DNA of 64,000 bases, taken from NCBI GenBank assembly GCA_963728205.1, contig CAVSIV010000006.1:1632001-1696000 (forward strand), read 5' to 3'. The position numbers and the translations under genes were made by a program. Shown one piece after another: positions 50,701-63,724 of the stretch (position 1 is the stretch's first letter; the number at the start of each line of letters is the position of its first letter). The notes beneath the pieces are model-generated. The model saw only the letters and a program-made list of their open reading frames with translations. It was not told the DNA's origin and ran no database searches. The DNA comes from an uncultured Chloroflexia bacterium. Its GTDB lineage: Bacteria; Chloroflexota; Dehalococcoidia; UBA2979.

Positions 50701-51765
50701 TCAGGCGGGCGGGCGACGTTCCGGTCGCTCGGGGTGACCGGCACCGGGAGCCGCCCGCCCGCCCCCGCTGCGCTCGTCGCCCACGACCGTGGGCTGAGGC
50801 CGGGGCTGCGCATGACCGTTCGTCTCGACCTGCGCGGGCTCGCCTCCGCGGCCGCTGAACTCCACGCGCCGGCGCGGCGTCGCGTCGATCTGCAGCTGGA
50901 ACACGTCCGGCCGCGAGTAGTGGCCGGCGATGTCGCCCATCGCCTTCCGCTCGCGCACCGTCTCCAGCGACACCTCCGCGGTGACAATCGTCTCCGCGCC
51001 CTGCGCGGCCTCGGCGACGACGCGGCCGCGCGGGTCGATGATCTGGCTGCGCGGCGCGAAGCGCGGCGGCGGCATCTCGCGAAAGCGCGGCGGCACGTCG
51101 TCGACGGACCCGCCGCCGCCGACGCTGACCACGAACGCGCCTGCCTGGAACGCGAAGGCGCGCGCGAGCAGCTCCGACTCCGACCCGGCGACGTCCGGCC
51201 AGGTCGCGACGTGCACCTGCGTCCCCTGCGCGGCGAGCGCGTAGCCGGGCAACATCATCTGGTGCTCCCAGCAGTTCAGCCCGCTCAGCCGCGCGTACGG
51301 CCGGTCATAGACGACGAGCGACGCCCCATCGCCCTCCGCCCACACGCGGCGCTCGGCGTCGGTCGGCTTCAGCTTGCGGTGGCGGCCGAGGATGCGCCCT
51401 TCGCGGCCGATGAAGAGGAGCGTGCAGTACACGCTGCCGCGCGTGTCCGGGTCGAGCTCGACGACGCCAATCGCGACGTCGGTGCCGGCGCCCCGGGCCG
51501 CTGCGACGAGCGCGTCGGTTTCGGGCCCGGGCACGCGCACCGCCTGGTCGATGTACGCCGCGCGCGCCTCGGTCTGCGGTCGGCTCCACGGATGGCTCGC
51601 CCAGTACGGGTAGCCCGGCAGCCACGTCTCGCCGAACGCCGCGAGGTCGGCGCCGCGCGCGCCCGCCTCCGCGATCAGCCGCACCGCCTTTTCGGTCGAG
51701 GCCGCCCGGTCGAAGAAGCAGGGCGCGGCCTGCACCGCCGCCAGCGTGAGGGTGTCGTCGCTCAT
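50701..51765 (-). CDS. Nitrilase / carbon-nitrogen hydrolase
   Basis: Triad motifs [23 protein letters not shown]; GHYSRPDV. Confidence 0.9.
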
Positions 51766-51898
51766 GGCAGCCTCCTCCGCCGGCGAGGATAGGCGCAGGG
51801 AGCCCGGCGGGGGCGCCGTACCGCGGCCGGCGCACGACTCGCATCGCCGAGCCGGCTTCGCCGGCGGATACGATCTCGCCGCACCGGGAGGTCCGCCG

Positions 51899-52348
51899 AT
51901 GACCACGCCCCACTACCAGCGCCCGAACTTCTTCACGCAGCACGTCTTCAACCCCGTGGTCGCATTCGCCACCGGCGTGCTCGGCATCAGCCTGAAGGGA
52001 TCGCGTGTCCTCTCGGTGCGCGGGCGCACGACCGGCGAGTGGCACAGCACGCCGGTCAACCCGCTGCCGTTCGAGGGCCGCCGCTACCTCGTCGCCCCGC
52101 GCGGGACCACGCAGTGGGTGCGCAACATTCGCGTCAGTCACGAGGGCCGCCTCCGCCACGGCCGGCGCCGCGAGACGATCCGCGTCGAGGAGGTGACCGA
52201 CGCGGAGAAGCCGCCGATCCTGCGCGCCTACCTGCGCGCCTGGGCGTGGGAGGTCGGCCAGTTCTTCGGCGGCGTCGGCCCCGACGCGCCCGAGTCCGAG
52301 CTGCTGCGCATCGCGCCGTCGCACCCGGTCTTTCGCATCGTCGAGTAG
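51899..52348 (+). CDS. Deazaflavin (F420)-dependent nitroreductase-family protein
   Basis: [25 protein letters not shown]. Confidence 0.85.
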
Positions 52349-52426: not shown

Positions 52427-53812
52427 CTAGCGCTGCAGCAGCGCCGCGATCATCGCGCGCGCCACCGGTCCGGCCTGCGTCGAACCCGCGCCCGCGCGCT
52501 CCTTCAGCACCGCGACCGCGATCCGCGGGTGGTCGACCGGCGCGAACGCGATGAACACCGCGTGCGTCGGCTGCCCCGCGAAGACCTCCGCGGATCCGGT
52601 CTTCCCCCCGACGGTCACGCCCGGGATCGCCGCCGTGTTCGCCCAGCCCACGTCCACGCTGTGCTGCATGATCGCGGCCAGCGCGTGGGCGGTGTCCGCG
52701 GACATCCCGCGCCGCCACGTCGCCGGCGCCTCGTCCATGAACAGCCGCGGCACCGGCACCAGCCCGTTGTTCGCGGCGGCCGCCGTGATCAGCGCGAGCT
52801 CGAGCGGCGTCACCAGCAGCTCGCCCTGCCCGAAGGCCGTCGACGCGATCGCCGAGTCGCTCGTCAGGAACCCCGGCCCGCCGACCTGCCCCGCCGACGT
52901 CGTGAGGTCGAACGGCACCGCGTCGCTCACGCCGAGCGCGTCGGCCATCGCTTTGAGCCGGTCGGCGCCGAGCTCGACCCCGAGCTTCGCGAAGAACGTG
53001 TTGCACGAGTACGCGTAGGCGTCGGCGACCGTCTGCGTGTGTTTGCCGGGCGGCTCGTTGTGGCTCGTGATCGTGTGGCCGTCGATCGTGATGCTCTCGG
53101 GGCAGGTCGCCGGGTCCGACGCCTTCACCAGACCGGCCTGCAGCGCCGCGGCGAGCGTGACGGTCTTGAACGTCGACCCCGGCGTGTAGAGCCCCTCGGT
53201 CGCGCGGTTGAGCAGCGGGCTGTTCGGCTGCGCGCTCAGCGCCTGCCAGCCGGCGGCGTCGACGTTGTTCGGGTTGAACGTGGGGTTGCTGACCATCGCC
53301 AGCACCTGCCCGCTGACCGGGTCGATCGCGACCGCCGCGCCCGGCGCGCCGCCCATCGCCTGCTCTGCCGCGCGCTGCACCGCGGGGTCGAGCGTGAGCC
53401 GCACGTCGGCGCCGTGGTGTGGCCAGTGCACGAGGTTCTGCAGGCTCGCGATCAGGTCGGTCGGCGCGCGGCCCGCCAGCCGGTCGGCGGCGGCCGCCTC
53501 GGCGCCGGCGGCACCCACGCCGGCGATCGTGTAGCCGACGACCTGCGCCGCGCCGGGGTCGGTGTAGTGCCGCGCCGGCTTGCCGTCGGGCCCCGTGACG
53601 GTCTCGGCGAGCACGTTGCCGTCGCGGTCGAGCAGCCGGCCGCGATCGCCGGTCGTCGCCTCGCGCGCGATGCGGTCGCCGTTCACCACTGCGTCGTGCC
53701 GGAGCGAGTCGGCGCGCACGACCTGCCAGTAGCCGGACGCCAGCGCCAGCACGAAGAAGCCGCCGAGGAGCACGATCCCGGCCTGCACGCTGCGTCGGAC
53801 GAGCGGGCTCAC
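52427..53812 (-). CDS. pbpA: Class B penicillin-binding protein (PbpA-like)
   Basis: N-terminal TM, RGRLLDRDG, SxxK (STFK), SxN (SCN), KTG. Confidence 0.9.
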   Translation of the reverse strand: MSPLVRRSVQAGIVLLGGFFVLALASGYWQVVRADSLRHDAVVNGDRIAREATTGDRGRLLDRDGNVLAETVTGPDGKPARHYTDPGAAQVVGYTIAGVGAAGAEAAAADRLAGRAPTDLIASLQNLVHWPHHGADVRLTLDPAVQRAAEQAMGGAPGAAVAIDPVSGQVLAMVSNPTFNPNNVDAAGWQALSAQPNSPLLNRATEGLYTPGSTFKTVTLAAALQAGLVKASDPATCPESITIDGHTITSHNEPPGKHTQTVADAYAYSCNTFFAKLGVELGADRLKAMADALGVSDAVPFDLTTSAGQVGGPGFLTSDSAIASTAFGQGELLVTPLELALITAAAANNGLVPVPRLFMDEAPATWRRGMSADTAHALAAIMQHSVDVGWANTAAIPGVTVGGKTGSAEVFAGQPTHAVFIAFAPVDHPRIAVAVLKERAGAGSTQAGPVARAMIAALLQR

Positions 53813-55113
53813 GTCGCCCCTGCCTCGTCGACGGCCGCCCGCGGCCGCGCCGTCGCCACGATCAGCCCGAGCGCGGCCCAGTTCATCACCATCGACGATC
53901 CGCCGTAGCTGAGAAACGGCGTCGTCAGCCCCGCGAGCGGGAGCACGCGCAGCGCGCCGCCGATGGAGATCAGCGCCTGCAGTCCGAGGCTGACCGCGAG
54001 CCCCACCCCGAGCAGCAGCGCGAAGGGATCGCGCGCCCGTCGCATCACGAGCATGGCGGCGCGGCTGACCATCAGCGCGTACAGCAACACGACGGCCAGC
54101 GCCCCGACGAGCCCCCACTCCTCGCCGATCACCGCGAACGGGTAGTCGGTGTGCGCGGCCGGCACCAGCGTGGGGAAGCCGTACCCCGGACCCGTGCCGA
54201 TCACGCCGCCCGACGCCATCCCGCCGATCGCCGACAGGCTCTGGTAGCCGAGACCCCGCGGGTCGTTCCACGGGTTGAGCCACGCGGAGATGCGCTCGTG
54301 CACGTGGCCGGACAGGTGGTACGCGGCGAACGACAGGACGACGAACAGCACCGCCCCGATCACCACGTAGTCGAACCGCCCGAGCGCCAGGTAGAGGACC
54401 GCGAGGAACGTCGCGAACAGCAGCAGCGCCGGCCCGATGTCGTGCTGGAACAGCACGATCAGCAGCGACAGCGCGACCATCGCCGCCAGCGGCAGCAGGT
54501 CCTCGAGCGGCGGCATCGAGAGCGGACCCAGCCGCCACGCCGCGCCGGTCAGCGGCTCGCGACGCGACGTCAGGTACCCGGCCAGGAAGACGACGAAGAT
54601 GATGCGCAGCAGCTCGGACGGCTGAAAGGTGAACGGCCCGAACGCGAGCCACAGGCGCTCGTCGCTCCCGCCGGGGCCGGTGCCGAACGCGAACGTGAGC
54701 AGCATCAGCGCGATCGACAGCGTCAGCCACGTGTACTTGTAGCGGCGCGCCAGTTGCACGGCGCTCGGCAGCGCGATCACCGCGACGAACGCGGCCCACC
54801 CCAGCGCGGCCCACATGATCTGCCGCTCGAGCAGGTCCGGGCGCACGCGCGCCACGCTGACGGTGCCGAGCGCCACCGTCGTCCATGCGGCGCCCACCAG
54901 CAGCGAGTCCGCGCCGCGCCCCAGCACGCGCAGCACCGCCGGCGTCAGCAGCGCGAGCAGCCCGAGCGCGCCGAGCTCGACGAGCGTGCGCGGCGGCGTC
55001 GCCCCGTGTCGCATGCTCACGACGACCGCTGCCGGCCCGAGCACGAGCAGCAGCGCGGGCAGCAGCACCGCCGCGGGCGACCGGGGCGGCCGGGCGGCCG
55101 GCAGCGCCGTCAC
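53809..55113 (-). CDS. rodA: SEDS peptidoglycan glycosyltransferase RodA/FtsW
   Basis: FQPSE, HDIG, GYQ, AHTDY, PFLSYGGSS. Confidence 0.9.
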   Translation of the reverse strand: MTALPAARPPRSPAAVLLPALLLVLGPAAVVVSMRHGATPPRTLVELGALGLLALLTPAVLRVLGRGADSLLVGAAWTTVALGTVSVARVRPDLLERQIMWAALGWAAFVAVIALPSAVQLARRYKYTWLTLSIALMLLTFAFGTGPGGSDERLWLAFGPFTFQPSELLRIIFVVFLAGYLTSRREPLTGAAWRLGPLSMPPLEDLLPLAAMVALSLLIVLFQHDIGPALLLFATFLAVLYLALGRFDYVVIGAVLFVVLSFAAYHLSGHVHERISAWLNPWNDPRGLGYQSLSAIGGMASGGVIGTGPGYGFPTLVPAAHTDYPFAVIGEEWGLVGALAVVLLYALMVSRAAMLVMRRARDPFALLLGVGLAVSLGLQALISIGGALRVLPLAGLTTPFLSYGGSSMVMNWAALGLIVATARPRAAVDEAGAT

Positions 55114-55670
55114 GCGTCGCGCTCGACGGCCGGTATCGACAGCGAGCCCCCGGCCGTGTCTTCGGCCCGCGGCGTCGGCGCGACGCGCTCGACGAGCCGC
55201 AGCCCCACGGGCCCCACGTCGATCAGCGCGCCGGCCGTCAGCGGGACCGCCGCGTGCACCGGGCGGCCCTCGACACGCGTGCCGTTCGTCGAGCCGAGGT
55301 CCTCGATCCACCACGTGCCGTCGCGCCAGCGCACGCGGGCGTGGCGGGTCGACACGCGCGGGTCGTCGAGGTGCACGCCGCAGTCGGGGTCGCGCCCGAT
55401 CGTGGTGACGGCGGCCAGGGGGACATGGCGCGGGCGCTCGTCGGCGTCGCCCTCGCCGGCGAGCACCTCGAGCCAGGCGGGCGCGCGCGGCTGCTCGGCC
55501 CCGCCCACGGCGGCGCGCCCCGCGATCGCGATCGCGCCGGAGGCGCGCAGCTCGCGCCGCAGCGTCGTGAACCCCGTGAGCAGGAACAGGTACAGCACCG
55601 CCACCACCGCGACGCGCATCGCGAAGACGGCCAGCGACCAGGCTTCGGCCGGCGTGAGGTTACCGGCCAC
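55110..55670 (-). CDS. Membrane-anchored FHA domain protein (FhaB-like)
   Basis: N-terminal TM; IGR, VSTRHA, DLGSTNGT. Confidence 0.88.
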   Translation of the reverse strand: MAGNLTPAEAWSLAVFAMRVAVVAVLYLFLLTGFTTLRRELRASGAIAIAGRAAVGGAEQPRAPAWLEVLAGEGDADERPRHVPLAAVTTIGRDPDCGVHLDDPRVSTRHARVRWRDGTWWIEDLGSTNGTRVEGRPVHAAVPLTAGALIDVGPVGLRLVERVAPTPRAEDTAGGSLSIPAVERDA

Positions 55671-56427
55671 GGACGCGCTCCGAGTCGTCGTGGTAGGTGA
55701 GCTCCGTGGAGCCGATGGCGAGCCGGTCGCCGTCGTGCAGCCGCGCGAAGTGCGCGCGCCGCCCGTTCACGTACACGCCGTTCGCGCTGTCGAGGTCGAA
55801 GACGACGCGCCCGCTCCCGGCGCGGCGGATCGCCGCGTGGTGGCGCGAGACCGCGGCGTCGTCGAGCACGAGATCGGCATCCTCGCCGCGGCCGATGCGG
55901 AACTCCGCGCGTGTGCCGAGGTCGGCGGCGCCGTCGCGCGCGACCGTGAGCCACGGCCCGGCCGGCCGCGCGCCGGGCGCCATCACGAGCGTGCGCCCGG
56001 CCGCGGGCCCGGTCCCCGGCCCCACCGCGGACGCCGCGCCGGCCGCGATCGTGTCGGCCGCTTCCGGCACGGCGAAGCCCACCGCGATGCGCAGCGCGCC
56101 GCCGGGCAGCGCGCCGTTCGGCACGAGGTGCACCGTGGCCGGCTCGATCAGCGACGCGCCGCGCTCGGCCGCCGCCTCCTCCACGCGCCGCTCGAGGCGC
56201 TGCTCGACGGCGTCGACGTCGGCCGTCATCCGCGCGAGCGTCCGCGGCGCGACCTCGACGCGGTAGTAGTGCGGCGCGAGGCGCTCGTGGCCGTCGACGA
56301 GGATCGCGTCCTCCATCGCCGCCTCCAGGCGCCGGGCCACGCGCGCCGGCGGCATGCGCCCGGCGAACAGTCGCTCGACACTGCCCTCGACGATCGCCGA
56401 CAGCGCGCGCTCGACGCGATTCAACAA
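55660..56427 (-). CDS. FhaA-like protein (DUF3662 + FHA)
   Basis: N-terminal RVERALSAIVEG..P..VARRL..APHYY; FHA IGR, VSRHHA, DLDSANG. Confidence 0.85.
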   Translation of the reverse strand: MLNRVERALSAIVEGSVERLFAGRMPPARVARRLEAAMEDAILVDGHERLAPHYYRVEVAPRTLARMTADVDAVEQRLERRVEEAAAERGASLIEPATVHLVPNGALPGGALRIAVGFAVPEAADTIAAGAASAVGPGTGPAAGRTLVMAPGARPAGPWLTVARDGAADLGTRAEFRIGRGEDADLVLDDAAVSRHHAAIRRAGSGRVVFDLDSANGVYVNGRRAHFARLHDGDRLAIGSTELTYHDDSERVRGR

Positions 56428-56559
56428 CGGCGGACGCTCCTCCGGGGTGGTGCGGTTCGTCGGCGCGACGGGCCTCGGTACAATCTGAGTGTCGCACGCG
56501 AGATTACGCTCCGGCATGGCCGGGGGCGAAGGGGTGTCGATGGGCGGGGCAGGGCGCGG

Positions 56560-58032
56560 ATGACGTGGTCGCACGCGGTCGAGGAGCGGTACGCGCTCGA
56601 CGAGCCGCCCGCGCCCGGCGCCGTCCGCGGCACGGACCGCAAGCTCGACCGGCATGTGGTGCTGTGGACGGTCGAGGGGCGCGACCCGCCGGCGCGCGAG
56701 GCGCTGCTGGCGCTGGCGCGTGGCTGCAGCCGGCTCGCGCACCCGCTCTTCCTCAAGGTGCTCGACGTCGCGGACGCGCCGGCGCGGCTCGCGGTCGTGC
56801 TGCAGTCGCCGGGCGAGGCGACGCTCGAGCAGCAGGCCGGCTCGCTGCCGACGCTCGTGGCGGTGTCGCTCACGCTCGAGGTCGCGACCGCGCTGCAGGA
56901 CGCGCGGCGCGTGGGTCTGGAGCCGCGGCAGCTGCCGCTGCGCTACCTGCACTTCGACCCCGAGGGCGTGCGCATCGACCCGCTCGGCGTGTTCGCCGCG
57001 ACACCGCGCGGCGCCGCCGCGAACGGCGCGGAGCCAGATGCCGCGGCGACGCCGGCGGTGTCGCTGCTGTGCGACCTGCTCGAGGAGTTGCTCGGCCGGA
57101 CGGAGGGCGCGCCCGACCGTTTCGACCCGGGTCGCGGGGCGGCGCGCAGCCTCGTCGCACGCTGGCGCGAACGCGCGGCAGCGCAGCCGGCGGACGACGG
57201 CGCGCTGCCGGCGTTTGTCTCGGAGCTGCGCGTGCTGCTGGGGCGCTGGGAGGGGCGCGCCGCGGCCGAGCCGGCCGCGGACGTCGCGCCGGGCGCCGCG
57301 ACTGCGGCGGCGCCGCAGCCGCGCCCGGCGGCCGCCGCCACGCCCGAAGCGCCGACCGTGCGGCTGCGGCGCCCGCCGGAGTCCGCGCTACGCGCGCGCC
57401 GCGAGGCGCGCGGCGGGGCGAGCGGCTGGCGCCGTCTGCTGCCGCCCCCGTTCCGCGGCGGCGAGCCCACCGCGCCGGCCGCGACCGCGACCACCACCCT
57501 CGCGCTCCCCGGGGCCGCGCCCGCGCGTCGGGGTCGCGCGGACGCCGGCGGCGCCCGCGTCGGCGTGCGCCCGTTGCTCGTCGTGCTCGCGACGCTCGTC
57601 TTCGGCGGCGCGGTCCTGCTCGCGGTATCGCCCGCGGCACGCGACACGCTGCGCGCGCACGTGCCGGCCCTGCCGGCGATCACGCTCGGCGGCGAAGGCA
57701 ACGGCGGCGGCGCGGGCGGCAGCGGCGGCTCGCAGCGCGCCGTCGCGACCGCGCCGGCGCCGGCGGCCGGGAAGGTGACGGTGAGCGTCGTCGCGCAGGA
57801 GCCCACCGTGGTGCGCGTCACCGTCGACGGCGCGCAGGCCTACAGCGGCACGCTGCGCGCCGGCCAGGGCGGCTCGTGGCAGGGGACCCAGCGGGTCGAG
57901 GTCTGGACGGACCACGGCAAGACGCTGCAGATCACGATCAACGGCTACGCGCTGGGCGCGTACTCGCCGGCGATGGGCCACCCCGACTGGAACCACATCG
58001 ACTACGGCTTCGGACCGGGCTGGAAACCGTGA
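56560..58032 (+). CDS. Degenerate kinase-like domain + TM + RodZ-like (DUF4115) C-terminal domain
   Basis: Kinase N-lobe remnants (DRKLDRHV, LAHP..LKVLDV) without the Gly loop, VAxK, HRD or DFG; TM LLVVLATLVFGGAVLLAV; C-terminal VRVTVDG..YSGTLRAG..LQITING. Confidence 0.7.
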   Translation: MTWSHAVEERYALDEPPAPGAVRGTDRKLDRHVVLWTVEGRDPPAREALLALARGCSRLAHPLFLKVLDVADAPARLAVVLQSPGEATLEQQAGSLPTLVAVSLTLEVATALQDARRVGLEPRQLPLRYLHFDPEGVRIDPLGVFAATPRGAAANGAEPDAAATPAVSLLCDLLEELLGRTEGAPDRFDPGRGAARSLVARWRERAAAQPADDGALPAFVSELRVLLGRWEGRAAAEPAADVAPGAATAAAPQPRPAAAATPEAPTVRLRRPPESALRARREARGGASGWRRLLPPPFRGGEPTAPAATATTTLALPGAAPARRGRADAGGARVGVRPLLVVLATLVFGGAVLLAVSPAARDTLRAHVPALPAITLGGEGNGGGAGGSGGSQRAVATAPAPAAGKVTVSVVAQEPTVVRVTVDGAQAYSGTLRAGQGGSWQGTQRVEVWTDHGKTLQITINGYALGAYSPAMGHPDWNHIDYGFGPGWKP

Positions 58033-58938
58033 CCCGCGAGCCCCGCGACGCGCCGAACGGCGATCCCGCCGGCGAGGCGGCCGAAGAGCCGAGCGCCGCC
58101 CACGCCGCCGACATCCGTCCCGGCGCGGTGCTCGCCGGCCGCTATGCGATCGAGCGCACGATGGCGACCGGCGGCATGGGCGCGATCCTGCTCGCGCGCG
58201 ACCGGCTGCTCGACCGGCCGGTCGCCGTGAAGGTGCTCCACCCGTACCTCGCCGGCGGCCCCGAGGCGCAGCGCTTCCTCAGCGAAGGCCGCGTGCTGGC
58301 CGCGCTCGTCCACCCCAACCTCGCGGCCGTCTACGACATGGACGAGGCCGACGAACTCCCCTACCTGGTCATGGAGTACGTCGAGGGCGAGAGCCTGGCG
58401 ACGCTGCTCGACCGCGAGGGCCGTCCACCGCTGGCGACGTCGGTGGCGTGGGCGACGCAGAATCTGCGACGCGCTCGAGTACATCCACGAGCGCGGCGTC
58501 GTGCATCGCGACGTGAAGCCGCAGAACCTGATCGTGACGCCGTCGGGCGCGATCCGGCTCGTCGATTTCGGCATCGCCCGCGCGTCGGACGCGACCGAGC
58601 TGACGATGCCCGGGTCGATCCTCGGCACCGCGCACTACCTCGCGCCGGAGCTCGTCGCCGGCGAGCCGGCGTCGGTGCGGTCGGACCTCTACGCGCTGGG
58701 CGTCGTGCTCTACCGGCTCTTCACCGGCCGGCTGCCGTTCCCCGGCGACGACCCGCTCGCGGTCGCGATGCGCCACCGCACGGACCCGATACCCCCGCCG
58801 TCCGAGGTCGTCACGGACCTGCCGCCGGGCGTGGAGGAGATCCTGTTGCGGCTGCTCGAGAAGGACCCCGAGCGCCGCTACGCCAGCGCCGGCGACGTCG
58901 CGGTCGCGCTGGCCGGCGTGCGCGCCGCGACGGGGTAG
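58029..58938 (+). CDS. Hanks-type Ser/Thr protein kinase, catalytic domain only (apparent +1 indel near 58461)
   Basis: TGGMG, VAVKVL, HPNL, then HRDVKPQN, DFGIA, GTAHYLAPE, SDLYALG in the next frame; no TM or PASTA. Confidence 0.88.
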
Positions 58939-58947
58939 GGGCCACAT

Positions 58948-59042
58948 CCCACAGCGGCGGCAGACATGCCGCCGACAGGGCGCGGACGCAGTCCGCGGCT
59001 GGCGCCGCCGATCTGTCGGCGGCGTGTCTGCCGCCGCTGTGG
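58948..59042. repeat. REP-like palindromic element, family A
   Basis: cacagcggcggcagacatgccgccgacag ... ctgtcggcggcgtgtctgccgccgctgtg between the convergent kinase and lhr genes. Confidence 0.88.
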
Positions 59043-59071: not shown

Positions 59072-62000
59072 TCAGTCGCCCGCCGGCACGGGCGGCGCGA
59101 AGTGGCCGCCGGGACCGCGGAACCGCAGGTTCGCGGTCGCGTCCTCCGGCAGGCCGTCAATCAGGACGATGCTCTTGCCCGGCTGCGCGGGAACGCGCGG
59201 CCCGTGGATCGCGATGCCGGTGAGGTTCGCGGGGTCGACGGCGCTGATCGTGACGCGCGTGCCGGCGGGCGGCTCGCGGCGGACGCGCCGCAGGATGGTC
59301 ACCGCCTCGGGCAGCGCGTACTGCTCGCCGACGAACCCGCCCACGAACCGGCCGCCGCGCACGGTGCCGCGCGCTTCCATGCGGCGCATCGCGCGCAGCA
59401 CCTCGCGCCACGGCAGCGCCACGCTCTCCTGTCGCGCAAGGTCGCGGAAGACGACGCCGTAGCGCCGCAGCAGCAGCATCGCGCGCGTGCTCGGCGAGCT
59501 CGTCGAATTCGTCCGACGGGGTCGACCTCGGGTGCGCGGACGAGCGACCAGCGGCCGGGTGGTCCGCCACCCGCGAACATGCCGCCGCGCAGGTAGTTCC
59601 CGCCGCGCGGCGCGCGCCGCCGAGCCGGACCGGCGCCCATGGCGTCGCTTCCGCCGGCGATCTCGCGCAGTCCCTGGAAGCCGTCGGAGGCGACCGAGCC
59701 GCCCGCGATCAGCTCGCGCAGCCCCTGCTCGACGTCGCTCGCCAGGCGGCGCGTCGCGGTCACGATCTCGTCGAAGAAGAGTGCGCCGCGCTCGGCGAGC
59801 AGCGCGTCGATCTCGCCGGCCGCGCCGGCGGTCGGCGGCGCTGCGGCCTCCGAGCCGCTTCCGCTCGCGGCTCCGCCGCGGGGCGGCCGCCGCGCACGGC
59901 CGCGAGCAGCGCCGGCAGGTCGCCGCGCGCGGCGAGCGTGACCGGGGTGGCGCGCGTCGCGGCGGTCGTGCTGGCGCGCGCGCCCTCGGCCGCGGCGCGG
60001 CGTGGCGTGAGGCGCGCCCACGCGACCTCGCCGGCGAGGCAGAGCTCGTCGAGCCACGGCGGCTGGTAGTCGCGCACGCGCGCCGCGATCAGCTCGGGCT
60101 CCCACGCGCCGGCCGGCGCCTCGAAGCCCTGCAGTCGCACGAGCGCCTCGCGCACCCCGCCGCGGCCGTGCAGCTGCTGGCCGGGCTCGAGGTGCTGCCA
60201 CCGCAGCAGGAACCGCATGAAGTCCTGCTGCGAGACCGGGTCGATCTCGCGGCGCAGCCGCTCGAGCGTGTAGCGGTGGATGCGGGCGAGCAGGCGACGG
60301 TCGCAGTATTCGGTCTCGGGCGGCATCTCCGATGCTGGAAGAGGCTTCGCCTGCGGCTCGCCGGGGGCGGGCGGCGTGAACGTCCCGGACAGGACATCAC
60401 CGCCGGCCTCGAGCATCGTCAGACCGTGCCGCGCGTCGTCGACGGCGAGACCGGCGCGCGCGGCGAACTCGGACGCGGTCGCGACGCCGATCGCCTCGGC
60501 GTGCCCGCGCAGCAGCAGCATGCGCGCGGCCTCGCGATGCTCGACGCGCGTCGCGACGCCGTCCGGCAGCGCGAGCGCCGGCAGCGCGGCGTCGGGGTAG
60601 AGCAGCCGCACGACGTCCCGGTGCTCGGCGGGGAACCACAGCCGCGCGCCCGCGTGCTCGAAGACGCCGGCGCGCCCGTCGGCGGCGAGCGCGTCGAGCC
60701 ACTCGCTCCAGTCGGCGACGACCGGCTCGGCGACCGCGACGAGCCCGAGCAGCGCGTCGTGCACCTCCTCGGCGTCGCGCGGGTCGGGCCACGCCTCGTC
60801 GGCCACCCGCGCGATCGCCTCGGCGTCGAGCGCGCCCAGGTCGCGCGCGTCCTCGGGGAGCGTGCGGCGCAGCGTGACCGCGCGCGTGCGGCGCTCCTCG
60901 ATCGGCGCGTCGTCGAGGTACGTGTACGGCCGCCCGGTCACGATCTCGTGCGCCATCGGCGACGGCTCGACGGTGTCGCGCGCGTGGTAGCGGATATCGC
61001 CGCGCTCGACCCGCTCCAGCACGTCGACCAGCCCCGGCACGTCCATCGCCTCGACGAGGCAGTCGCGCATCGTCTGGTGCATCAGCGGGTGATCGGGGAG
61101 CGTGAGCGGGCCGGTCACGTTCTCCTGGCAGCCGACCTGCTCGGGGAAGACCGCCGCCATCAGGTCGTCGGCGCGCATGCGCTGCACGAACGGCGGCACG
61201 CGCCGCCCGCCGCGCTGCCGCGGCACCGCCAGCGCGCGCGTCGCGTTCCAGCGCCAGCGCGTCGGCCACAGCGGCACGTAGAACACCGACTGCTGCACGG
61301 ACTGCTCGGCGTTGCGCGACGTCACCCACTCGATATGCCTCTTCGAGCGGCCACGAGTGCTGCGGGCCGGCCGAGAGCAGGATCGCGTTGTCGTTCGCCG
61401 CGGCCTGCAGCTCGAAGTCGAACGCGACGCAGAACCGCTTGCGCAGCGCGAGCCCCCATGCGCGGTTGATGCGCATGCCGAACGGCGCATGCACGACGAG
61501 CTGCATCCCGCCGGAGTCGTCGAAGAAGCGCTCGAACACGACGTCGGTGTCCGACGGCACGACGCCGAGTCCGTCTCGCGTCGCGCGCACGTAATCGATC
61601 ATCTGCTGCGCGCCGAGTTCCGTGAGCGCGCACTCGGCCTGCAATCGCTCGCGGAGAGACTGCCTGTCGTCCAGCCCCGCGCCGATATCCCGCCGCAGCT
61701 GCCCGACTTCCTCCGACAGCTCCACGGTCCGCCCGGGCGCCTCGCCGAGCCAGAACGGGATCGTCGGCGGCGCACCCTGCGCGTTCGTCACGCGCACCGT
61801 CGACTGCTCGACGCGCTGGATGCGCCACGACGTCGAGCCGAGCAGGAAGATGTCGCCTGCCTGGCTCTCCATCGCGAAGTCCTCGTTCACCGAGCCGACG
61901 GTGACGTCCTCCGGCTCGGCGACGACGCGGTAGTCGCCCATCTCGGGGATCGTCCCGCCGTTGGTGATCGCGGTGAGGCGCGCGCCGCGGCGGCCGCGGA

Positions 62001-63441
62001 CGACGCCGTTGATGCGGTCGCGATGGATCAGCGCCGGCGCGCGACCGGCGCCGTCGCCCAGGCCGTCCGCCAGCATCTGCACGATCTCGTCGAAGTCCTC
62101 GCGCGCCAGCGACGCGAACGGCGCGGCGCGTCGCGCGAGCGCGAAGAGGTCGTCCTCGCGCCAGTCCTCGCACGCCGCCTCGGCGACGATCTGCTGCGCG
62201 AGGACGTCGAGCGGCGCGACCGGCTGCTGGATGCGGTCGAGCCGCCCGGCGCGCACCGCGCGCACGAGCGCCGCGCACTCGATCAGCTCGTCGCGTGACG
62301 TCGGGAACAGCCGGCCGTGCGGGCGCAGGCCGAGCGCATGGCCGGAGCGGCCGATGCGCTGCAGGAACGTCGCGATCGCGCGCGGCGAGCCGACCTGGCA
62401 GACGAGGTCGATCGCGCCGATGTCGATGCCGAGCTCGAGCGAAGCGGTCGCGACGAGCGCCTTGAGGTCGCCCGCCTTCAGCCGCTGCTCGACGCGCAGG
62501 CGGCGCTCGCGCGACAGCGAGCCGTGGTGGCTCGCGACCATGTCCTCGCCGAGCCGCAGCGCGAGGTGGTGCGCGACGCGCTCGGACAGCGCGCGCGTGT
62601 TCACGAAGATCAGCGTCGTGCGGTGGCCGGCGACCAGCTGGGCGAGCCGGTCGTAGATGTCGGCGAACTGCTCCTTCGACGGCACCGCTTCGAGGTCGCT
62701 CGGCGGCACCTCGACGTGCAGCTCGAGGTCGCGCTGGTGGCCGAGGTCGACCACCTCGCACGGCCGGTCCGCGCCGACGAGGAAGCGCGCGATGTCCTCG
62801 ATCGGCCGCTGCGTCGCGGAGAGGCCGATGCGGGCCGGCGGGGCGCCGGCCGCGATGTGCTCGAGGCGCTCGAGCGACAGCGCGAGGTGGCTGCCGCGGC
62901 GGTCGCGGGCGAGCGCGTGGATCTCGTCGACGATCACGGTGCGAACGTGGCGCAGCGTCTCGCGGCCGCGTTCCGCGGTGAGCAGCAGGTAGAGCGACTC
63001 CGGCGTGGTGATCAGGATGTGGGGCGGGCGGCGGACCATCGCCTGCCGCTCGGACTGCGGCGTGTCGCCGGTGCGCACGCCGGTCCTGATCGCCGGCGGG
63101 ACGAGCCCGAGCTCCGCGGCCACCTCGGCGATGCCGGCGAGCGGCTCCTCGAGGTTGCGCTGGATGTCGTTGCCCAGGGCCTTCAGCGGCGAGACGTAGA
63201 GGATGGACGTCTCGTCGGCCAGCTCGCCGCGCTCCGCCGCGCGGAAGAGCGCGTCGATGCCGACGAGGAACGCGGCCAAGGTCTTGCCGGACCCGGTCGG
63301 CGCTGCCAGCAGCGTGTTGCGGCGCGCGAGGATGTGCGGCCACCCGGCGATCTGCGCGTCGGTAGGCGCGCCGAAGCGGCGGCGGAACCACTCGCGAACC
63401 GCCGGGTGCAGGGCGTCGAGCATCGAGGCGTCGTCGGTCAC
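59072..63441 (-). CDS. lhr: Lhr-family ATP-dependent helicase (several apparent frameshifts)
   Basis: [35 protein letters not shown]; C-terminal [27 protein letters not shown]; frame breaks near 61335, 59870 and 59480-59520. Confidence 0.9.
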
Positions 63442-63457
63442 GTGTCCCCCGCGCATC

Positions 63458-63530: not shown

Positions 63531-63620
63531 CAAGCGGCGGCAGACATGCCGCCGACAGGACGCGGACGCAGTGCGCGGCTGATGCCGCGCTTCTGTCGGC
63601 GGCATATCTGCCGCCGCTTC
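63531..63620. repeat. REP-like palindromic element, family A
   Basis: aagcggcggcagacatgccgccgacag ... ctgtcggcggcatatctgccgccgctt. Confidence 0.88.
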
Positions 63621-63724
63621 GGCTTTCGGCGAAGCCGAGACCTGCCGTACGCCCGATTTGGACGCGTGCACTCCGTATGTGCTAGAAACCGAGCCGCCAC
63701 CGCCCCCGGTTCCACGGAGTCGCA

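Follow-up and report, generated by a model that had tools for sequence, protein, structure and literature searches.

A pseudokinase-transmembrane-RodZ_C protein encoded with a Hanks-type kinase beside rodA-pbpA in Chloroflexota

Introduction

Receptor pairs made of a pseudokinase and a kinase exist in eukaryotes, HER3-EGFR being an example. In bacteria, Thr947 of the pseudokinase protein MviN is phosphorylated by PknB and then recruits FhaA, according to PMC10166564 and PMC12599244. The mode by which PknB-type kinases are activated is described as highly debated (PMC13434768), and kinase-dead PknB is reported to stimulate wild-type PknB in vitro, a stimulation abolished by the L33D substitution (10.64898/2026.10.08.757607). 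Here we analyse a 64,000-nucleotide stretch of a genome from an uncultured member of the Dehalococcoidia (GCA_963728205.1, contig CAVSIV010000006.1, positions 1,632,001 to 1,696,000), referred to as the window. It encodes a 490-amino-acid (aa) protein composed of a dead kinase fold, one transmembrane (TM) helix, and a RodZ_C domain, next to a gene for a Hanks-type kinase and opposite fhaA, fhaB, rodA, and pbpA (Table 1).

We think it somewhat probable that the 490-aa protein is the dead, single-pass half of a kinase made of two chains and serves it as receptor and phospho-scaffold, that its neighbour supplies the catalysis, and that together they regulate an accessory RodA-PbpA pair. An earlier note, made from the DNA letters alone, had not recognised this architecture as described, and our literature search agrees: no description of a RodZ_C pseudokinase was found in the literature searched, a scope outside which most subscription journals lay, and the main text of two surveys of bacterial pseudokinases mentions neither RodZ nor DUF4115.

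Fold and lost catalytic residues of the pseudokinase domain

The N-terminal domain of the 490-aa protein is a Hanks-type pseudokinase by its fold and by the loss of the Lys, the HRD Asp, and the DFG Asp. The earlier note had called it kinase-like, and structural comparisons bear this out: the AlphaFold model of the domain (predicted local distance difference test, pLDDT, 85.8; predicted template modelling score 0.83) retrieves protein kinases with Foldseek (E about 2e-8) and aligns with PknB (PDB: 1mru) over 210 residues in VIA-align (Z 17.3, root-mean-square deviation 3.9). Its ESM Atlas features fall into kinase-like clusters too. A Pfam scan of the 490-aa protein found no kinase family in its N-terminal half. 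Profile searches of the PDB gave results that changed with the depth of the alignment. Four rows matched Mycobacterium tuberculosis PknA (E 1.6e-5) and PknB, nine rows put the MviN pseudokinase on top (E 2.7e-8), and twenty rows left PknA, StkP, and MviN tied at about 2-5e-8, so that no special kinship to MviN is shown. Descent from MviN, which the nine-row profile had suggested, was not upheld by the deeper profile, and MviN is absent from our tree.

The replacement of the catalytic motifs claimed in the earlier note holds, with one refinement. VAVK reads VVLW, so that the beta3 Lys is Trp36, HRD reads PRQ, the alphaC Glu is Leu52, and both the Gly loop and the activation segment are missing; the DFG column aligns with PLG, and an invariant Asp140 sits one position earlier. 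We compared nine pseudokinases with 16 ordinary Hanks kinases from the fetched loci over 79 conserved kinase columns. Eight columns are kept in every pseudokinase, seven of them in the N-lobe (R10, Y11, D26, L29, R31, A53, and D69) and the eighth being A115. No pseudokinase has the beta3 Lys, the alphaC Glu, the catalytic-loop His, Asp, Lys, or Asn, or the DFG Asp, and orthologues that retain catalytic residues were accordingly not encountered: Lys, Glu, and both Asp are gone in 9/9. In all nine, the beta3 Lys position holds Trp and the DFG Asp position holds Pro. Although the 20 homologues are only 32-40% identical to the 490-aa protein, R10, Y11, D26, L29, R31, D69, and D140 are invariant across the 20-row alignment, as is Trp36 (20/20). 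An Arg at the HRD-Asp position occurs in 8/9 pseudokinases and is not kept in half of the homologues found later.

Two of the retained residues, L29 and D69, align with MviN residues that lie 43 apart, in the motifs DTALDR and RVLDV. The same spacing separates the back-to-back dimer residues L750 and D793 of MviN (according to PMC12599244) and the dimer residues L33 and D76 of PknB (PMC13434768). L29 and D69 therefore probably occupy the positions of the PknB back-to-back dimer residues, the PknB numbering being taken from motif position.

The linker threonine and the RodZ_C domain

Between the dead domain and the membrane lies a linker that is predicted to be disordered (pLDDT under 50 in the full-length model). 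Thr266 is invariant in 20/20 homologues, and the rest of the linker is unconserved. FHA domains prefer a hydrophobic residue at position +3 of the phosphothreonine. A strict motif of this kind (acidic-Pro-Thr-x-x-hydrophobic) is present in 8/9 linkers against 0.47 expected from shuffled sequences, and in 6/12 proteins found later against 0.53 expected. A looser Thr motif occurs in all 12 of these later proteins (3.4 expected). None of 12 linkers from the kinase-less fusion form described below carries the strict motif. On the reader side, the phosphothreonine-binding motif is intact in the FHA domains of both FhaA and FhaB of the window, and in nine of the ten FHA frames examined overall; the frame from G065 was mis-picked.

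The earlier note had predicted one TM helix and a RodZ-like C-terminus, and both were found, the helix by hydropathy at residues 339-357 and the RodZ_C domain by a Pfam match (PF13464) to residues 410-465 that exceeds its cut-off (E 2.1e-6; 28 bits, cut-off 23.9). The C-terminal domain is beta-rich in the full-length model, carries a conserved aromatic C-terminal extension that is specific to the protein family, and is the best conserved part of the protein. The same RodZ_C subtype with the aromatic tail also occurs on other proteins (P0040, P0042, P0047, P0048, P0051; L024, L025, L065). In one such context it follows an N-terminus with a Cys motif and a domain resembling a hydrolase, a fold judged by eye and, in P0040, without a Pfam match; in another it belongs to two-TM proteins without an adjacent rodA.

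The partner kinase

The stop codon of the pseudokinase gene overlaps the GTG start of the kinase gene in the sequence GTGA (58029-58032), as the earlier note had reported. The note also described the downstream protein as a kinase with intact motifs and no TM helix or PASTA domain. The window kinase has these properties, except that its reading frame is not intact: its halves lie in different frames one extra base apart (58029-58460 and 58462-58938), and residues 6-121 of the intact orthologue from G016 match the one frame and residues 122-276 the next. Seven of the 58 genes in the assembly that are matched by open reading frames of relatives are spread over more than one frame: the kinase is one, the boundary between rodA and pbpA another, a third is a doubtful case of low identity, and the remaining four are clear rows that fall at three places. 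Because of these other breaks, the frameshift in the kinase is likely an assembly error.

Intact orthologues of the kinase are found in G016, G021, L186, and L188 and are 59-66% identical to the window halves where compared. Cassette kinases keep the Lys and Glu in 9/9 rows and both Asp in 8/8. Among genomes of the host family, the kinase is full-length in G016 and G021 and shortened in G004, G065, and G076. We also observed minimal kinases of about 185 aa (L051, L052, and L054, corresponding to G074, G075, and G072) that keep the Lys, the Glu, and both Asp; missing from them are the activation segment and the greater part of the C-lobe. The kinases of two metagenome loci, L186 and L188, have a TM helix and no recognised sensor domain, with L186 truncated where its contig ends. 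It is therefore likely that the anchor was lost secondarily. Thus, the word soluble in the earlier note fits the window protein and describes a derived state, and what stays constant is the absence of a sensor.

The pseudokinases group together (support 100/100), as do the cassette kinases (92/96), and the subclades of the two groups match; a tandem duplication of the cassette kinase is a possible reading of this. In six of eight relatives, the cassette kinase is the sole Pkinase match at E<=1e-20. A complex prediction for the G016 pseudokinase and kinase scored 0.82 and one unrelated control 0.70, which gives no answer and was used neither for nor against binding.

Distribution and gene neighbourhood

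The protein family is matched in 25 of the 99 genomes surveyed from the host family, many of which are incomplete. Nine matches are full-length, 12 are short fusions, three are short two-TM proteins without an adjacent rodA, and one is a fragment. Beyond the family, samples of 400 genomes from the phylum and 400 from the class yielded no orthologue, and the matches inspected there proved to be ordinary kinases or RodZ; one unpublished genome (G263) within the phylum sample is counted in that tally only. A search of 1.84 billion representatives added 11 full-length proteins, and word-index searches returned the query alone or the query and one fusion-form protein. Conservation in nine genomes and 11 further protein clusters excludes chance.

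A kinase gene lies directly downstream of the pseudokinase gene in 9/9 full-length loci. The earlier note had made conservation of the pair next to rodA-pbpA a test, and the neighbourhood survey found this arrangement in 7/9 genomes, with rodA-pbpA divergent on the same contig and an FHA gene between. The two exceptions are G074, in which the contig ends after fhaB, and G021, in which fhaB-rodA-pbpA is on another contig. A PbpA orthologue (E under 1e-100) is present in 22/99 genomes, all of them among the 25 with the protein family, and the other 74 family genomes have no match at E 1e-60; much of this co-occurrence is simple linkage. As a side observation, RodA and PbpA share one open frame, a natural fusion of the SEDS protein and the class B penicillin-binding protein (PBP), in 20/23 loci (window 52427-55113 and relatives L019, L022, L023, L052-L064, and L170-L172) and are separate in the window, G065, and L188.

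Seven of 16 metagenome loci have a downstream kinase, seven show the fusion form, and two are too short to tell; two of the 16 repeat genomes already counted. The most complete arrangement is that of L188 (52% GC), where PP2C, pseudokinase-TM-RodZ_C, kinase-TM, fhaA, fhaB, rodA, and pbpA follow one another on one strand. Three one-chain proteins (P0067, P0081, and P0121) combine a catalytically intact Hanks kinase, a TM helix, and RodZ_C.

A fusion form without kinases

Twelve genomes carry, divergent from rodA-pbpA, a gene for a protein made up of the N-terminal helix of FhaB, a linker, a second TM helix, and RodZ_C. The fetched loci of this form contain no kinase, pseudokinase, or FHA match, and ten of the 12 genomes have no Pkinase match at E<=1e-20 at all. 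On a quick PbpA tree with Shimodaira-Hasegawa-like approximate likelihood ratio support, the fusion genome G069 is nested in a full-length clade that has strong support, and the other 11 lie elsewhere; the fusion therefore needs at least two origins. The FhaB helix of G069 resembles that of the full-length clade around it. These fusions suggest joint action of the FhaB helix and the TM-RodZ_C unit, which a phospho-dependent link would normally join; the fusion would then represent a hard-wired assembled state from which the phospho-switch has been dropped.

Features of the window and the host genome

Table 1. Features of the locus in window coordinates
Feature	Position	Strand	Evidence
Pseudokinase-TM-RodZ_C protein, 490 aa	56560..58032	+	Open reading frame, Pfam, AlphaFold
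Hanks-type pseudokinase domain, about residues 5-234	56572..57261	+	AlphaFold, VIA-align, column table, 20-row alignment
Thr266 (EAPT-VRL) of disordered juxtamembrane linker, predicted to be phosphorylated and to dock FHA	57355..57357	+	Alignment, motif counts
Single TM helix, residues 339-357	57574..57630	+	Hydropathy 2.62
RodZ_C (DUF4115) beta domain, predicted extracytoplasmic	57772..58029	+	Pfam PF13464, model
Hanks Ser/Thr kinase without TM helix or sensor, motifs intact, frameshifted near 58461	58029..58938	+	
fhaA (FhaA_N and FHA), start codon uncertain	55660..56517	-	PF12401 E 5e-19, PF00498 E 2e-17
fhaB (N-terminal TM helix 13-31 and FHA)	55110..55670	-	PF00498 E 9e-20
rodA-type SEDS glycosyltransferase, one of three SEDS genes and counted as the third	53809..55113	-	PF01098 E 7e-69
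pbpA-type class B PBP, motifs SxxK/SxN/KTG	52427..53812	-	PF00905 E 1e-56, PF21922
Small gene, weak F420H2-dependent quinone reductase match (Pfam cut-off range), convergent with pbpA	51746..52348	+	
Presumed Lhr-like helicase gene in three reading frames, probable assembly indels	59072..63456	-	

The four genes that the earlier note placed divergently from the pair all have Pfam matches. The F420H2-dependent quinone reductase-like gene beyond pbpA is not kept beside the cassette in the first eight loci checked. On the other side, the gene adjoining the kinase is one that we take to be Lhr-like. A palindromic element of about 94 nucleotides resembling repetitive extragenic palindromes occurs at 158 places in the genome, in the window at 58949-59042, just 3' of the kinase stop, and at 63533-63623.

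The host genome encodes Mur ligases, two MreB proteins, and three SEDS proteins, and the cassette rodA-pbpA is therefore an accessory third pair; dcw-type and MreB-linked SEDS genes are present besides it. The genome (G000) also holds a PknB-PASTA gene (C6:1,799,358-1,801,403), and the objection that the host has a PknB-PASTA of its own, hence that nothing is split, had to be considered. The contig tail around this gene has a foreign tetranucleotide composition and carries 0 of the 88 host repeats of C6; the gene is therefore likely a contaminant, so that the objection is doubted, not disproven. The PknB-PASTA gene itself looks actinobacterial. Foreign-composition tails without the host repeat extend from about 1.76 Mb on C6 and from about 1.20 Mb on C1, which likely reflects a chimeric assembly.

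The RodZ-type protein of the host family is HTH_25-TM-PASTA in all six cases tested (L116, G000:C6:1004846-1005685; L117-L145). An HTH_25 protein of this type is near-universal in the family (56/61 genomes sampled), whereas an example taken from a different family of the class has RodZ_C at its end. Within the host family, RodZ_C is almost confined to the cassette (24/25 matches). An exchange of ectodomains between a PknB-like kinase and RodZ would possibly explain this distribution of PASTA and RodZ_C.

Proposed mechanism and alternatives

In the mechanism that we propose, the partner kinase would phosphorylate Thr266, and the phosphothreonine would recruit the FHA domain of the membrane-anchored FhaB, and of FhaA. 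Recruitment would bring the FhaB helix beside the TM-RodZ_C unit and thereby engage RodA-PbpA. The dead domain may in addition dock back-to-back on the kinase's N-lobe and stimulate it, a step we hold to be possible and slightly doubtful, and RodZ_C would contact the synthase or the cell wall. Sensing by RodZ_C and contact between the two kinase domains are both presumed in this scheme. The split of sensing and catalysis put forward in the earlier note, with the pseudokinase as membrane receptor or scaffold, is thus partly supported, by the invariant Thr, the dimer-surface residues, the fusions, and the one-chain relatives. Its further proposal that RodA-PbpA is the regulated synthase fits the position of the pair beside rodA-pbpA, with the qualification that this synthase is an accessory third pair of SEDS protein and class B PBP, found in only 22/99 family genomes. 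We regard as rather doubtful a fuller version with the logic of HER3/EGFR, in which the dead receptor would sense the wall through RodZ_C, activate the sensorless kinase back-to-back, and clamp FhaB onto the accessory RodA-PbpA by one phosphothreonine, having been born when RodZ and a PknB-like kinase swapped ectodomains and having repeatedly given way to a constitutive FhaB-RodZ_C fusion.

Several observations weigh against a dead receptor served by its neighbour. Ordinary kinases conserve the retained N-lobe residues as well (13-16 of 16), and these may therefore serve folding or homodimerisation. The strict linker motif was drawn up after the first nine sequences had been seen, the looser one was widened to admit Met at +3 for the later 12, and the sequences are kin. 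The kinase is frameshifted in the window genome itself, its C-lobe is shortened in 6/8 relatives, which fits decay, and those of G072, G074, and G075 end soon after the DFG region. The module is dispensable, as 74/99 family genomes, including all three others of the genus, have no match, and fhaA is adjacent in only 2/9 loci (G000 and G016). For RodZ_C no ligand is known, and the periplasmic part of Escherichia coli RodZ is mostly dispensable, RodZ acting through MreC, according to PMC13584716; the cassette contains no mreC.

One rival reading is an MviN-like brake without allostery, in which a pseudokinase homodimer would be a substrate only and phosphorylated Thr266 would capture FHA proteins to inhibit or sequester them. 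The MviN pseudokinase does form a back-to-back homodimer through the equivalent residues (as given in PMC12599244), its phosphothreonine recruits FhaA to inhibit synthesis (as given in PMC10166564), and the top match of the nine-row profile was the MviN domain. With 20 rows, however, PknA scores as well as MviN, the kinase always neighbours the pseudokinase and their subclades match, and the repeated fusion of the FhaB helix to TM-RodZ_C beside a retained rodA-pbpA reads more easily as a useful assembled state, and we consider such a brake unlikely. The fusions can also be read as decay. The protein would then be a RodZ-like accessory subunit of RodA-PbpA, and the dead domain and the kinase would be leftovers of a pknA-pknB-type system that no longer signals. 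The frameshift here and the truncated kinases of several relatives, the 12 genomes in which both kinase domains are gone and TM-RodZ_C and rodA-pbpA remain, the strong conservation of RodZ_C, and the lack of a PP2C_2 match in G021, G075, and G020 all fit this, yet Trp36, the N-lobe residues, Asp140, and Thr266 have stayed invariant in 20 sequences at 32-40% identity, full-length kinases are intact in four genomes or loci, and the phosphothreonine-binding motifs of the FHA domains are intact. Decay without present signalling therefore seems quite improbable to us. Still further down we place an atypical enzyme or nucleotide binder that would use the invariant Asp140 (20/20) and the Arg at the HRD-Asp position (8/9); some bacterial pseudokinases have new chemistry (according to PMC12599244), but Trp replaces the ATP-binding Lys in 20/20, Gly loop and activation segment are absent, and the Arg is missing from half of the later homologues, which makes this very improbable.

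A two-chain kinase with a dead receptor half would touch two open questions, how PknB-type kinases are switched and how fha-rodA-pbpA-pkn clusters control RodA-PbpA. With a partner that is dead by nature and retains the residues of the dimer surface, allosteric activation would be set apart from catalysis in a system of two proteins that could be rebuilt in vitro. The loci also grade naturally from the complete cluster, which has its phosphatase and a membrane kinase, to soluble or truncated kinases and on to the kinase-free fusion, and this gradation suggests for the FhaB helix and RodZ_C a role that can be tested. In the class Dehalococcoidia, peptidoglycan is ancestral and was lost in most orders (as stated in PMC10284905), and the locus adds a pseudokinase family to a class that has mostly lost its cell wall.

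Comparison with known systems

The MviN/MurJ pseudokinase (ActPs3; PDB: 3OTV, 3UQC, and 3OUN) with FhaA shares with the window protein a dead Hanks fold ahead of a TM segment, the missing activation segment, the Leu and Asp dimer residues of the N-lobe, a Thr just C-terminal of the domain, an FHA partner, which is a predicted one for the window protein, and a link to peptidoglycan synthesis. Thr266 would parallel MviN Thr947 as a predicted phosphothreonine C-terminal of the dead domain with a hydrophobic residue at +3. However, MviN is fused to the MurJ flippase, whereas the window protein stands alone as a single-pass protein with RodZ_C outside and no MurJ match in Pfam. By motif description the two are also set apart (VVLW, LEPRQLPLRY, and DPL here; VALT, LSIDHPSR, and a missing DFG (Y) in ActPs3), and unlike MviN, the window gene has a kinase gene of its own and rodA-pbpA as neighbours and comes from Chloroflexota. 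The GLW pseudokinases, mainly from proteobacteria, have GLW for HRD and LLLL/W at beta3. The beta3 Trp is common to both; the loop here reads GLEPRQ and the host belongs to the Dehalococcoidia.

Like the fhaA-fhaB-pstP-rodA-pbpA-pknA-pknB cluster of Mycobacteriales, the window contains fhaA, fhaB, rodA, pbpA, and two genes with a kinase fold, and the gene set of L188 is that of the mycobacterial operon (as described in 10.1101/2024.08.13.607006). The differences are that the ectodomain-bearing kinase is dead here, that RodZ_C takes the place of PASTA, that the active kinase of the host family has no TM helix, and that the gene order is divergent. The window cassette also lacks a PP2C gene, the only PP2C_2 match of G000 being on another contig, whereas the L188 cluster has one. 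Against the model for PknB/Stk1 PASTA kinases (NF033483, cut-off 450), the 490-aa protein gives no match, and the G016 and L188 kinases reach 326 and 376 bits and have no PASTA domain. RodZ (HTH_25-TM-RodZ_C) is likewise a single-pass protein with RodZ_C outside and a tie to a pair of SEDS protein and class B PBP, but it carries an MreB-binding HTH where the window protein has a pseudokinase, and Pfam finds no HTH_25 in the 490-aa protein, the HTH_25 protein of this genome being encoded at another place. The one-chain kinases P0067, P0081, and P0121 have the same domain order (381 aligned columns, hhalign probability 99.6) and may be independent fusions. By analogy with HER3-EGFR, the dead receptor may be an allosteric activator that bears phospho-docking sites, through a different interface. 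The system would work like an MviN-FhaA module inside a pknA-pknB-type cluster, yet it lacks the features that define MviN/ActPs3, the GLW pseudokinases, PknB, and RodZ.

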